Below are positions 11,411-52,313 of a DNA stretch of 64,000 nucleotides, piece by piece. The first letter of the stretch is position 1. The number at the start of each line of letters is the position of its first letter. The translations under genes and the position numbers were made by a program. The notes beneath the pieces were generated by a model, which saw nothing but the letters and a program-made list of their open reading frames with translations, did not search any database and was not told the DNA's origin. The stretch is from an uncultured Planctomycetota bacterium (lineage in GTDB: Bacteria > Planctomycetota > PLA2 > JAEUHO01): positions 1,472,001 to 1,536,000 of the forward strand of contig CAVVXN010000005.1 of the NCBI GenBank assembly GCA_963752285.1. The letters are read 5' to 3'.

Positions 11411-11596
11411 GGCCAGGGGACGCGACGTGCTCAGGGACTCCCTCCAGGGCGAAGCGGCCAGCGTACGGCAGCACGCCGCCGAGGGGCGAGCAAGACGCGG
11501 ACCGCCGAACGGCGCCCCCGCCAGGCCCCTCACCCCGCCACCACCCGCCCCCCGTGCGATCCAGCACACCCCCACCACACCCCCCGCGCGCCCCCC

Positions 11597-12102
11597 GCGA
11601 TGCGGCGAAACCAAAGGCAAGCCGCAAGCGCGAGCCCCCAACCCGCAGCCCGCCCCGGTCCCGCCCCCTCCCCCCCGCGATGCGGCGAAGCCAAAGGCGA
11701 GCCGCAAGCACGACCCCCGCCACGCCGCGCCGCCACATCCCGCAAGCCCCCCGCGATGCGGCGAAGCCAAAGGCAAGCCGCGAGCACGACCCCCGCCACG
11801 CCGCGCCGCCAAATCCCGCAAGCCCCCCGCGATGCGGCGAAGCCAAAGGCGAGCCGCGAGCACGACCCCCGCCACGCCGCGCCGCCACATCCCGCAAGCC
11901 CCCCGCGATGCGGCGAAGCCAAAGGCGAGCCGCGAGCACGACCCCCGCCACGCCACGCCACGCCGCGCCGCCACATCCCGCAAGCCCCCCGCGATGCGGC
12001 GAAGCCAAAGGCGAGCCGCGAGCACGCCCCCCCGCCCCGCGCCGCGTCGCGCCATCCCGCAAGCCGCCCGCGATGCGGCGAAGCCAAAGGCGAGCCGCGA
12101 GC
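11597..12102. repeat. Tandem array 1: 7 hairpin units GCGATGCGGCGAAGCCAAAGGCGAGCCGCRAGC, period 76-86 bp
   Basis: Unit starts at 11597, 11677, 11753, 11829, 11905, 11991, 12070; linkers are mostly repeated. Confidence 0.95.
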
Positions 12103-12121
12103 ACGAGCCCCCCCCCGACGC

Positions 12122-12229
12122 GGGGCGGCGCGCGGAGAGGCCAAAGGAGTGGCCCTGACGACGACGCCGCGTGCGAATGCACGCAAGGAGGAGGAAGGGC
12201 CGCGAACTGGCCTCTCCGCGCGCCGCCCC
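12122..12229. repeat. Structured element copy 1 (64-nt core inside a 22-bp perfect inverted repeat)
   Basis: GGGGCGGCGCGCGGAGAGGCCA...TGGCCTCTCCGCGCGCCGCCCC; core differs by 1 nt from copies 2 and 3. Confidence 0.95.
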
Positions 12230-12230
12230 C

Positions 12231-13403
12231 CTAGCCGCCGGCGCCGCTGCCGATGGTCTCGACGAGTTTAAGAAGCGGCAAAAACAACCCCAACACGATC
12301 AAGAACACCGCCCCACCCAAAAAGATGATCAACACCGGCTCGATGATCGACGTGATCGACCCGACCGCGACGTCCACCTCCTCGTCGTAGTTGTCCGCAA
12401 CGCGGATCAGCATCTTGTCGAGCTCGCCGGTCTCCTCGCCGACGTCGATCATGTTCACGACGATGTCGTCGAAGATGCCGCTCTCGCCGAGCGGCTCGGC
12501 GATCGTGCCGCCCTCGGAGATCGAGTCGCGGACCTTGGTGAGCGCGTGGACCATGACCACGTTGCCGGCGGTGTCGCGGCAGATGTCGAGGGCCTCGAGG
12601 ATCGGCACGCCCGACGCGATCAGGGTCCCGAAGGTCCGGCTGAACCGCGCCACGACCACCTTGCGGGCGATCGGGCCGACCACGGGGAGGCGGAGCTTCA
12701 GCCGGTCGAGGAAGCGACGCCCCGGGGCCGTGCGCGCCAGGAACCGGATGCCCATGACGAACAGGATGAGGATCGCACCGAGCACGTACCACTGGTCGAT
12801 CAGGAAGCGGGAGAACGCCTGCAGGGCGCGGGTCAGTGCCGGGAGGTCGCCCGCGCCGGGGAGGCTCTGGAACACCTGTTCGAACTTCGGCACCACGAAG
12901 ATCATGATGAGGAGCAGGATCGAGAGCGTGACCGTGGCGACGACAGAGGGGTAGATCAGCGCACCCTTCACGCGGCGACGCAGGCGCTGCGACTTCTCCA
13001 TGAAGCTCGCGAGGCGGGACAGGATCACGTCGAGCACGCCGCCCGTCTCGCCGGCCTTCACCATGTTCGAGTAGAGGTTGTCGAAGACGGTGCCGTGCTT
13101 CGCCATGGCCTCGGACAGCGGCGACCCGCTCTCGACGTCCTCCGTCACGTCCACCATGACGCTCTTGAAGGGACCGCGGTCCATCTGCCCTTCGAGGATC
13201 TTCAGGCTGCGCACGATCGGGAGGCCGGCGTCCTGCAGGGTCGAGAGCTGCGTCGTGAACTCCGTGAGCGCCCGCTGCGAGACCCGCTCGCGACGGCGGC
13301 GTGCCCGCGCGGGGGCCGGCATCACGGCGGTCGTGGAGCCGCGCGACGGCGTGCCTCGCGTAGCCGTGGCGGACGTCTTCGCTCGGGCGGGGATCTTGGG
13401 CAT
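12231..13403 (-). CDS. pilC: Type IV pilus/T2SS inner-membrane platform protein (PilC/GspF)
   Basis: FTTQLSTLQDAGLPI, NMVKAGETGGVL, RFSRTFGTLIASGVPILEAL, GEETGELDKML. Confidence 0.93.
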   Translation of the reverse strand: MPKIPARAKTSATATRGTPSRGSTTAVMPAPARARRRRERVSQRALTEFTTQLSTLQDAGLPIVRSLKILEGQMDRGPFKSVMVDVTEDVESGSPLSEAMAKHGTVFDNLYSNMVKAGETGGVLDVILSRLASFMEKSQRLRRRVKGALIYPSVVATVTLSILLLIMIFVVPKFEQVFQSLPGAGDLPALTRALQAFSRFLIDQWYVLGAILILFVMGIRFLARTAPGRRFLDRLKLRLPVVGPIARKVVVARFSRTFGTLIASGVPILEALDICRDTAGNVVMVHALTKVRDSISEGGTIAEPLGESGIFDDIVVNMIDVGEETGELDKMLIRVADNYDEEVDVAVGSITSIIEPVLIIFLGGAVFLIVLGLFLPLLKLVETIGSGAGG

Positions 13404-32397: not shown

Positions 32398-32440
32398 GAC
32401 CCATCATGATACCGCCGGCCCCCTTCCCCACCGCCCCCCC

Positions 32441-33066
32441 GCGACGCGGCGCCGCCCAAGGCGGCCCCGCAAGCGCACGCCCCCCCGCGCGATGCGGCGC
32501 CGCCAAAGGCGGCCCCGCGAGCCCACGCCCCCTCCGCGCGATGCGGCGCCGCCAAAGGCGGCCCCGCGAGCCCCCCATCGCCACACGCGACGCGGCGAGG
32601 CCGAAGGCCGACGCCGCAAGCGCACGCCCCCTCCGCGCGACGCGGCGCCGCCAAAGGCGGCCCCGCGAGCCCCCCATCGCCACACGCGACGCGGCGAGGC
32701 CGAAGGCCGACGCCGCAAGCGCACGCCCCCTCCGCGCGACGCGGCGCCGCCCAAGGCGGCCCCGCGAGCCCCCCATCGCCACACGCGACGCGGCGAGGCC
32801 GAAGGCCGACGCCGCAAGCGCACGCCCCCTCCGCGCGACGCGGCGCCGCCCAAGGCGGCCCCGCGAGCCCCCCATCGCCACACGCGACGCGGCGAGGCCG
32901 AAGGCCGACGCCGCAAGCGCACGCCCCCTCCGCGCGACGCGGCGCCGCCAAAGGCGGCCCCGCGAGCCCCCCATCGCCGCACGCGACGCGGCGAGGCCGA
33001 AGGCCGACGCCGCAAGCGCACGCCCCCTCCGCGCGACGCGGCGCCGCCCAAGGCGGCCCCGCGAGC
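32441..33066. repeat. Tandem array 2: 13 hairpin units of two alternating types (A, B), 99-bp AB period
   Basis: A=GCGAYGCGGCGCCGCCMAAGGCGGCCCCGCRAGC (8 copies); B=GCGACGCGGCGAGGCCGAAGGCCGACGCCGCAAGC (5 copies at 32587, 32686, 32785, 32884, 32983). Confidence 0.95.
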
Positions 33067-33092
33067 CCCCCCGCCCAACCGCCCGCACGCGA

Positions 33093-33194
33093 CCGGCGCG
33101 CTGAGAGGCCAAAGGAGTGGCCATGACGACGACGCCGCGTGCGAATGCACGCAAGGAGGAGGAAGGGCCGCGAACTGGCCTCTCAGCGCGCCGG
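33093..33194. repeat. Structured element copy 2 (64-nt core inside a 19-bp perfect inverted repeat)
   Basis: CCGGCGCGCTGAGAGGCCA...TGGCCTCTCAGCGCGCCGG. Confidence 0.95.
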
Positions 33195-33196
33195 GC

Positions 33197-33595
33197 CTAG
33201 CGCTTGGAGAATTGGAAGCGGGCCCTGGCACCACGCTGGCCGTACTTCTTCCGCTCCTTGGCCCGCGCGTCGCGGGTCAGGTAGCCGGCGCTCCGCAGCG
33301 AACCCTCGAACGTCGGGTTCGCGCTCGCGAGCGCGCGGGCGAGGCCGTGCCGGACCGCGTCCGCCTGGCCCTGGACGCCGCCGCCGCGGACGGAGACGTG
33401 GACGTCGTAGCTCGAGTCCGTACCGGTGAGCCGGAGGGGCTGACGGACGGCGAGGCGTGCGGCGTGCGTGGGGAAGTGCTCGCTCCAGTCGCGACGGTTC
33501 ACCGTCATCTGGCCCGAGCCGGACATGATCCGGACCCGCGCGACCGCCTTCTTCCGGCGGCCCACTCCGCGCACGAACTCCGATCGCTCCACCAT
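33197..33595 (-). CDS. rpsI: 30S ribosomal protein S9
   Basis: GRRKKAVARV, GGG..GQADAVRHG, LTRDAR.KERKKYG, QFSKR. Confidence 0.98.
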   Translation of the reverse strand: MVERSEFVRGVGRRKKAVARVRIMSGSGQMTVNRRDWSEHFPTHAARLAVRQPLRLTGTDSSYDVHVSVRGGGVQGQADAVRHGLARALASANPTFEGSLRSAGYLTRDARAKERKKYGQRGARARFQFSKR

Positions 33596-49975: not shown

Positions 49976-50107
49976 CCCCGCGCGCGCGAGGACGGTCACG
50001 CCCTGGAGGGTCGGACGGCCCGAACCGGGTCAGGTCCGGAAGGAAGCAGCCCTAAGGGTTCGACCCGACGTCTCCCGGTCCCCGTGACCGTCCTCCCGGG
50101 CGCGGGG
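49976..50107 (+). ncRNA. ffs: Signal recognition particle RNA (4.5S)
   Basis: Domain IV motif GTCAGGTCCGGAAGGAAGCAGC; closing stem GAGGACGGTCACG/CGTGACCGTCCTC; -10-like TACCAT at 49965. Confidence 0.95.
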
Positions 50108-50205
50108 CGCTGAGGGGCCAGTTCGCGGCCCTTCCTCCTCCTTGCGTGCATTCGCACGCGGCGTCGTCGTCATGGCCACTCCTTTGGCCCCTCAGCGCCC
50201 CGCGC
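50100..50205. repeat. Structured element copy 3 (inverted relative to copies 1 and 2; 21-bp perfect inverted repeat)
   Basis: GCGCGGGGCGCTGAGGGGCCA...TGGCCCCTCAGCGCCCCGCGC; core is the exact reverse complement of copy 2. Confidence 0.95.
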
Positions 50206-50226
50206 CGCGCGTGGGGTGGGGCGGGG

Positions 50227-50456
50227 GCTCGCGGCTTCGGCCTTCGGCCTTGCCGCGTCGCGGGGTGGGCGGGCGGCTCGCGGCTTCGGCCTTCGGCCTT
50301 GCCGCGTCGCGGGGTGGGCGCGGGGCTCGCGGCTTCGGCCTTCGGCCTTGCCGCGTCGCGGGGCCGGCGCGGGGCTCGCGGCTTCGGCCTTCGGCCTTGC
50401 CGCGTCGCGGGGTGGGCGGGGGCTCGCGGCTTCGGCCTTCGGCCTTGCCGCGTCGC
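50227..50456. repeat. Tandem array 3: 5 identical 35-nt hairpin units, period 48-49 bp
   Basis: GCTCGCGGCTTCGGCCTTCGGCCTTGCCGCGTCGC at 50227, 50276, 50325, 50374, 50422 with G-rich 13-14 nt linkers. Confidence 0.95.
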
Positions 50457-50491
50457 GGGGCGGGGGCGGGGCGGGGGGGCGGGAGTGGGGG

Positions 50492-52221: not shown

Positions 52222-52313
52222 TGGCGGAGAGGACAGGATTCGAACCTGCGGTACGGCGTGAACCGTACACGTGCTTTCCAAGCACGCGCCTTCGACCGCT
52301 CGGCCACCTCTCC
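52222..52313 (-). tRNA. tRNA-Ser(GGA)
   Basis: GGAGAGG acceptor stem, anticodon arm CGTGC-TTGGAAA-GCACG, long variable arm, GGTTCGAATCC, encoded CCA. Confidence 0.97.

Follow-up and report, generated by a model that had tools for sequence, protein, structure and literature searches.

The window (the whole stretch of DNA that was analysed, 64,000 nt from an uncultured Planctomycetota bacterium) contains three copies of a long hairpin. All three have a common layout when viewed along their purine-rich strand, which carries the motif AAGGAG: a tandem array lies on the 5' side and the end of an opposite-strand gene on the 3' side. The AAGGAG strand is the + strand of the window for copy 1 and the - strand for copy 3. 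Copy 1 (12122..12229, +) comprises 108 bases that are predicted to form a rod-like hairpin, in which a 64-nt core (12144-12207) lies inside a perfect 22-bp closing stem made of the 5' arm (12122-12143) and the 3' arm (12208-12229). It is joined on its 5' side to a tandem array of 6.9 hairpin units of 76 nt (11583..12122, +), and the TAG stop of a convergent gene of the type II secretion protein F family (12231..13403, -; PF00482, E 3e-63) is found 2 nt past its 3' arm. Copy 2 (33093..33194, +; core 33112-33175, 19-bp arms) is preceded by an array of 6.4 units of 99 nt, in which two hairpin types alternate and which fills the spacer between rpsI and yebC (32440..33071, +). Its 3' arm lies 3 nt from the TAG stop, within a CTAG, of rpsI, the gene for ribosomal protein S9 (33197..33595, -; PF00380, E 1.1e-45). 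Copy 3 (50099..50206, -; core 50121-50184, 22-bp arms) has an array of 5.5 units of 49 nt on its 5' side (50204..50472, -) and starts about 11 nt past the 3' end of the signal recognition particle (SRP) RNA gene (49993..50087, +; RF00169, 48.7 bits).

The array period thus differs between the three loci (76, 99 and 49 nt). Despite these locus-specific periods, the minisatellites of the window share the frame motifs CGCGA[CT]GCGGC ... GCCGCGAGC. On the strand that is purine-rich in the big hairpin, their internal loops are rich in purines as well (GA/GAA) and their spacers are rich in C. A scan of the window at the Rfam gathering threshold returned only the SRP RNA and a tRNA gene (52225-52313, -; RF00005, 58.9 bits), which is unrelated to the hairpin.

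A 52-nt inner part of the hairpin occurs three times as an exact match in the window, at 12156-12207 (+), 33124-33175 (+) and 50121-50172 (-), and none of 100 dinucleotide-preserving shuffles gave such a match. Copies 2 and 3 have the same 64-nt core, from which that of copy 1 departs by one base (C for A before TGACG), as the first-pass annotation had reported. Each copy is predicted to fold into one long rod of -73 to -91 kcal/mol (-90.7 kcal/mol for copy 1), which is far more stable than shuffled sequences on both strands (z -6.5 to -9.6; copy 1, z -9.6). The other features described in that annotation, namely the compensated closing stems, the inner stem, the apical hairpin GCGTGC-GAAT-GCACGC and the stretch GACGACGAC opposite GGAGGAGGA, were all found in the window copies, so that sequence and fold are as described. 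Two details changed: the stem lengths had been given as 22, 19 and 21 bp, of which the first two hold and the third is 22 bp, and the closing stems had been regarded as specific to each locus. We find instead that the arms are homologous between loci; they are diverged forms, with subfamily variants, of one arm with the consensus CGGCGCGCTGAG(A/G)GGCC(A/C), which is common to most copies in the genome and partly to other genera. A core inserted into the loops of older, locus-specific terminators was rejected as an origin on the basis of this homology between loci and genera.

In the whole assembly (4.64 Mb in 5 contigs, 73% G+C), we detected 26 hairpin copies with at most 8 mismatches to the 52-mer, 14 of them with an identical 52-mer. 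A search with nhmmer recovered the same 26 copies (E <= 4e-17), and the next match had an E-value of 0.47. The orientation of the copies flips within 17 kb on one contig. A tandem array is present on the 5' side of 21 of the 26 copies, and three of the remaining five make up a 183-nt tandem array of their own. The unit period ranges from 42 to 211 nt over the genome and the unit sequence differs by locus. Conversely, 19 of the 22 arrays in which the unit motif CCGCGAG occurs at least twice adjoin a hairpin. An all-against-all blastn comparison of the array ends in this genome revealed no conserved far end beyond the arrays; on the other side, the 3' arm itself is the right end of the element.

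Two further loci stand out. The most diverged copy (G000:C5:1132013-1132125; 7 mismatches) has no array and overlaps a prepilin-type gene at the gene's 5' end. In frame, it would provide a long leader ending ...RQQAG/FTLLEVM; it may be an exapted copy. At G000:C3:155350-158140, a tandem pair of paralogous genes without a Pfam match (about 532 and 545 aa) has a hairpin and an array after each gene, and the last codons and TGA stop of one of them lie inside the 3' arm of its hairpin.

We compared the covariation of paired positions to shuffled controls in three sets of copies. Among the 26 copies of this genome, 94.1% of the cells were paired compared to 83.6% in shuffles, and 18 of the 35 pairs change on both sides. 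The corresponding values were 92.5% and 72.0% (31 of 35 pairs) across genera, in a set of 34 model matches that covers loci of 16 other genomes and both strands of the own copy, and 92.4% and 76.4% (29 of 35 pairs) for 90 copies from metagenome-assembled genomes (MAGs). In each set, none of 500 shuffles reached the observed value, a significance that is overstated since the copies are related. Alignments A2 to A5 were fitted to the structure of the model. Slid controls for the 26 own copies paired at 33-47%. The suggestion of the first-pass annotation that the structure is selected is thus supported by covariation beyond shuffles within the genome, across genera and in the MAG copies.

The same annotation had offered a second possibility, in which one arm is copied from the other during insertion or repair. 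Such a mechanical origin, by template switching in the palindrome or flank copying, would make the arms complementary and leave the fold unselected. It would fit the observations that most copies have arms that pair perfectly over 18-22 bp and that the palindrome extends 3-5 nt past the shared arm into the gene end in a few. It does not explain the cross-genus covariation of isolated pairs and of the inner and apical stems, nor the switch from G·A to G-C pairs and the predominance of G·U over A·C pairs (3:1 to 4:1) that are described below. Furthermore, the arms fall into shared subfamilies that are homologous across loci and genomes rather than derived from flanks, and a sister genome of the same genus (G001) has an empty site with nothing like an arm in it. 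Arm copying is thus already largely refuted, and we consider it highly improbable.

The fold is a rod. Its three stems are connected through a helix made of tandem G·A/A·G pairs with Watson-Crick pairs in between. The purine stretches read 5'-U-GA-N-GA-N-GA-C opposite 5'-G-GA-N'-GA-N'-GA-A, such that each GA is positioned against a GA. The isolated N-N' pairs between them flip without any one-sided change in the cross-genus set (GC 18, CG 13, AU 1, other 1 for one pair; CG 17, GC 16 for the second). In the MAG set, 79 and 87 of 88 sequences, respectively, have complementary bases at these two pairs; as the search pattern left both sides free as S, these flips are not a search artefact. In two genera, one G·A/A·G unit is swapped for G-C/C-G, which argues that the GA dinucleotides indeed oppose each other. 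The 12 G·A columns contain no non-consensus cell among 300 in 25 copies, and one among 312 when the most diverged copy is added. Elsewhere in the hairpins of this genome, non-consensus cells amount to 20% in the outer stem, 5% in the inner stems and 5.4% at other unpaired positions. The loops vary in size: the apical loop has 4-10 nt depending on the genus, and the basal loop has 5x4 nt here and about 3x2 nt in relatives.

Relatives carry GGACGACGA in the purine run, with compensating changes on the opposite side. Both this substitution and the pairing of the purine runs as tandem G·A run counter to the proposal of the first-pass annotation that the GGA repeats are CsrA-like binding sites. An RNA that titrates CsrA/RsmA was rejected on the same grounds, as GGA lies inside the G·A helix and changes to GGACGACGA; in addition, no CsrA gene (PF02599) was found in any of five hairpin-bearing genomes searched, which are 55-89% complete. 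The occurrence of GGACGACGA in relatives also led us to discard a mimic of the anti-Shine-Dalgarno sequence on the complement (CCUCC). A small ORF (AAGGAG-N5-ATG, MTTTPRANARKEEEG...) was rejected as well: its start is ATG, CTG or GTG among the copies, and the apical loop lengths of 4-10 nt break the frame after the conserved ATG between genera.

The two strands of the hairpin are not equivalent. An A·C pair on the AAGGAG strand corresponds to a wobble pair on the complement, and tandem G·A becomes U·C/C·U on the other strand. On the AAGGAG strand, G·U pairs outnumber A·C pairs in three alignments (47:12, 69:23 and 49:15). Predicted folding energies also favour this strand over its complement: among 109 distinct copies, it is the more stable one in 104 with RNA parameters (mean -7.0 kcal/mol) and in 98 when DNA parameters are used. 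Judged from these sequence comparisons, it is the AAGGAG single strand that is constrained to fold, a point that we count among those shown.

We next consider where the copies are located relative to genes. At least 15 of the 26 copies have a gene end close by: 8-52 nt separate the end of their core from the stop codon of an intact convergent gene or from the SRP RNA 3' end. The 14 neighbouring genes that we scanned are unrelated housekeeping genes whose domains extend to the C-terminus. In this genome, a hairpin's purine strand nearly always lies antisense to the gene that it abuts, in agreement with the first-pass annotation, which had placed the element on the strand opposite the neighbouring transcript. 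The tetranucleotide CTAG is very rare, with 630 occurrences in 4.64 Mb, and TAG accounts for 23% of the stops of 1366 confident ORFs. Six of the 26 copies have a CTAG no more than 64 nt from the core on the 3' side, compared to 0.23 expected (P 8.5e-8), and in 14 of 26 a TA is present within 47 nt of the core, compared to 8.3 expected (P 0.016). Several genes here stop at the TGA of the 3' arm's CTGAG, with no TA at the junction.

This position would also fit a host cis element at mRNA 3' ends, in which hairpin and arrays, transcribed along with the neighbouring gene, would stop RNA polymerase or block 3' exonucleases and thereby insulate convergent or successive genes. Such roles have been proposed for REP/BIME, ERIC, Correia and SPRITE repeats in the accounts given in PMC3049150 and PMC2649163. 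In addition to the proximity to gene ends, the stems are very stable on both strands, and one composite occupies the intra-operon spacer between rpsI and yebC. However, there is no T run past the stem on either strand in the 26 copies, by which an intrinsic (Rho-independent) terminator was rejected. In this genome, the constrained strand is the antisense one, such that U·C/C·U mismatches would take the place of the conserved G·A pairs in the mRNA, and a plain terminator leaves the invariant G·A units unexplained. The orientations in G001 relative to the hit gene, which are about equal (five and five, see below), also argue against this role. We thus consider a host element of mRNA 3' ends unlikely.

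The hairpin is widespread in one family. Our covariance model (R1) matched 17 of the 24 other genomes searched within the family, the highest counts being 43, 43 and 69 matches per genome, and had no match in 16 more distant relatives (11 genomes of a sister family and 5 other families of the phylum). An exact degenerate pattern, searched in 185,579 species genomes, was found in 82 stretches from 13 MAG assemblies, of which 12 are labelled Planctomycetota or Planctomycetia and one Alphaproteobacteria. The latter (G041, a MAG of 56-59% G+C) contains four copies with A/T-rich, fully compensated stems in which the G·A core and the apical hairpin are kept. These four copies (L246-L249) have a common left boundary, ..GGACT/GCACGCAG.. 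(here and below, a slash marks a junction), and beside or within the outer arm of two of them there is a terminator hairpin of the classical kind, with a T run. PF07596, which we used as a phylum marker for G041, had no match anywhere searched and is thus uninformative on its phylum. In total, the core was seen in at least four contexts: in a unit with terminal inverted repeats, linked to arrays, in tandem hairpin arrays and in the 56-59% G+C MAG.

Hairpin positions differ between genomes. At the rpsI loci of 22 relatives, no model match was better than E 0.013, compared to 1e-27 for the own locus. In the sister genome G001, the spacer between rpsI and yebC has 62 nt and is an empty site, whereas it contains about 780 nt of hairpin and array here. 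G019, which belongs to another genus and lies outside the set of 22 relatives (L051), has a copy just past the TAA stop of rpsI; the stop lies about 15 nt to the right of the hairpin and the C-terminus, read from the sequence, is ARFQFSKR. This copy suggests either that sites of one kind are used repeatedly or that the insertion is polymorphic.

The hairpin of G001 is part of a defined repeat unit. The unit comprises about 225 bp, which start with CTA/GTGTCCTG..., continue with about 75 nt that include a small hairpin and with the 112-nt hairpin, and end with ...GGCACGGCACAC/TAG. It has imperfect terminal inverted repeats and CTAG on both sides, often on a TAG stop codon. Among 25 copies with a recognisable left end, the left junction is cta/G in 15; among 21 copies, the right junction is C/tag in 12 and C/tac in one. 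TA is present at both junctions in seven copies, and in the two cases with CTAC this variant stands at each end of the unit. Well-supported genes use the junction TAG as their stop codon at the right end of five copies and at the left end of five, so that there is no orientation bias toward the hit gene in G001. Other genera have the same unit plan with their own imperfect terminal repeats. Searching this genome for the relatives' terminal repeats yielded no pattern match, and a second search gave matches at chance level only. In G001, the hairpin unit is often bordered at its right end by repeats of another family (GAGCCTGCACGACCCACGAACGG...ATCGCGCGGCCCTCGTGTCC...; loci L103, L104, L110, L113, L116, L128, L134 and L136).

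A further possibility is a free-standing gene for a small structured RNA: read from the AAGGAG strand under its own promoter and with a protein as partner, it would merely ride on various carriers. A core that is conserved above any flank and occurs in at least four contexts is in line with such a gene, and the strand asymmetry fits. Yet the copies have no common promoter-like motif upstream, a scan of seven loci from five genomes against Rfam at E <= 1 found only the SRP RNA, and 26-69 near-identical genes would be unusual for one RNA. Furthermore, short variants of the G001 repeat exist that lack the hairpin. A small RNA gene is thus an improbable explanation.

In G001, the C-terminal remnant of an IS630-family transposase gene (PF13358) ends with ...GGTCAGGACAC/TAG, which corresponds to the 11 terminal bases of the repeat's left end; the transposase link is thus one of 11 identical bases beside a single remnant. 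According to table 1 of PMC2577343, the IS630 target is TA within CTAG, and IS5 is described in PMC5493358 as duplicating Py-T-A-Pu, mostly CTAG. IS630-family genes are present in 6 of the 24 family genomes and were not seen in the two hairpin-richest ones, which are 55-57% complete. None of 18 IS630-family loci from 41 genomes had a model match in or beside the transposase gene, and the IS630 ends in G005, G012 and G017 did not match the local repeat ends. As other possible parents, IS5/IS4-type genes (PF01609) are present in G001, none with matching ends, and no DUF4096 (PF13340) gene was found.

Alternatively, the repeats might be moved as single-stranded DNA by a tyrosine (HUH) transposase that recognises the strand-specific non-canonical hairpin, similarly to REPINs. 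The strand-specific fold would suit this mechanism, as would the long hairpin, the compensated changes and the tandem clusters, which are described for REPINs in PMC3116915, and the genome contains one PF01797 gene. This sole match (C1:103535-103858, in a 364-aa ORF; G000:C1:102035-105358, L057) is of the Y1 IS200/RAYT-like type. However, the gene is far from any hairpin copy and is flanked by inverted repeats of its own (TCGACTCCCGACCCAGATTTTCG), which are different. Moreover, CTAG or TA appears duplicated on both sides in relatives, while HUH transposition makes no such duplication, and the orientation of copies flips within 17 kb on one contig. Mobilisation by an HUH transposase is thus quite improbable. 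The Y1 gene and its TCGACTCCCGACCCAGATTTTCG repeats constitute a second, separate repeat system in the genome.

We conclude that the hairpin is probably the conserved centre of small, non-coding, interspersed repeats that resemble MITEs (miniature transposable elements with inverted repeats) and belong to one family of uncultured Planctomycetota. The copies would have spread via a DDE transposase, either of the IS630 type, with TA within CTAG as the target, or of the IS5 type, with duplication of CTAG. In a genome of 73% G+C, the rare CTAG would commonly overlap TAG stop codons, where insertions are tolerated, and the element may abut gene ends for this reason. The perfect compensation of the arms would reflect selection for the fold along active or retained copy lineages, as in REPINs, with no templating by the flanks. 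In this genome, the terminal repeats of the relatives would have been lost and the hairpin fused on its 5' side to locally amplified minisatellites, comparable to boxB in the pneumococcal BOX element. The fold itself is most likely a protein ligand, as RNA or as single-stranded DNA, that would be needed for the persistence of the repeat. As no terminal repeats and no conserved far end were found here and a TA is near the core in only 14 of 26 copies, IS630-type insertion in this genome is an extrapolation from the relatives.

Two observations fit less well with MITE-like repeats. Cut-and-paste transposition by a DDE enzyme gives no obvious reason why a strand-specific internal fold should outlast the ends, and neutral insertion into the palindromic CTAG does not predict the near-constant antisense orientation in this genome. 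Alternatively, the rod, with its apical hairpin, three to four stacked G·A units and covarying spacers, could be a new class of ligand, as RNA or single-stranded DNA, with a dedicated protein partner. It would be kept by purifying selection at dozens of loci and passed between unrelated carriers and, in view of the four copies in the MAG labelled Alphaproteobacteria, even between unrelated genomes. The repeat would be merely its vehicle, and it might have a role at gene ends, e.g. in marking, insulating or processing. We regard this as rather unlikely.

As a MITE-like family, the repeats account for the composites of hairpin and minisatellite found at 21 of the genome's 26 hairpins, among them the ones that follow rpsI and the SRP RNA gene. 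They also illustrate how, at very high G+C content, an element that seeks CTAG comes to be placed right at stop codons. For uncultured Planctomycetota, small interspersed repeats appear to be undescribed; a full-text literature search gave only a survey of REPs that mentions the phylum. The unusual feature is how conservation is distributed: the internal, strand-specific G·A helix stays invariant, whereas the stems and ends vary and even the carrier does. A pattern as clean as this opens both a binding partner and a function in transposition to direct testing.

Lastly, we compared the element to known systems. MITEs, non-autonomous derivatives of DDE transposons that are mobilised by transposases of the IS630/Tc1-mariner or IS5 type, are likewise short, non-coding, tightly folding multi-copy elements, and they have terminal inverted repeats, as do the units of G001 and of other genera; for one MITE, RUP of Streptococcus pneumoniae, these repeats are described as resembling those of IS630-Spn1 (PMC3049150). 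Further points of likeness are that positions vary by genome and that, in G001, TA or CTAG appears duplicated at both ends and 11 terminal bases are common with the IS630-family remnant. Unlike in MITEs, conservation is highest in an internal, structured core that is not palindromic; the termini differ between genera and are missing in this genome, and no intact cognate transposase was identified.

TA duplication is known from the Correia elements of Neisseria as well. These elements (CREE/NEMIS) resemble the present ones as interspersed, gene-adjacent repeats of about 100-150 bp with inverted repeats and a conserved core, and their RNA hairpins are described as bound or cut by RNase III (PMC2649163; PMC3049150). 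They are unrelated in sequence and phylum, and in contrast to them the hairpin repeats show no IHF or promoter motifs and have a conserved, strand-specific tandem G·A helix. REPINs and the REP-RAYT system share several of the hairpin's features: about 100 nt in length, frequent compensatory changes, an extragenic position at gene ends, tandem clusters and a population of copies within one genome, as described in PMC3116915 and PMC3733652. Each REP palindrome has a GTAG or CGTC tag at one end (PMC3733652), whereas GTAG was not seen at the hairpin base here; CGTC occurs on the complement of array units. The present element further differs in that the only Y1 transposase gene is flanked by another repeat, in the apparent target duplications of relatives and in its conserved part, which is apical and not at the hairpin base. 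The BOX element of S. pneumoniae (boxA, variable tandem boxB, boxC), as described in PMC3049150, is also a composite of a conserved terminal module and variable tandem hairpin units. The composites here differ by having a single conserved module on one side only and units whose sequence and period vary by locus, and there is no sequence similarity to BOX.

The G·A helix can be compared to tandem sheared G·A motifs. The likeness lies in 5'-GA-3' against 5'-GA-3' beside C-G pairs, invariant while neighbours covary. Such motifs are known from k-turns, GA-rich internal loops and mini-hairpins of the d(GCGAAGC) type. In comparison, three to four units are stacked here at a spacing of 3 nt in one helix. 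The canonical 3-nt bulge of a k-turn is absent, and none of the five genomes searched contained an L7Ae-family gene (PF01248). Taken together, the element resembles familiar mobile repeats and is not a new system; what is new is a stacked G·A helix that is conserved more tightly than the ends and in several contexts.
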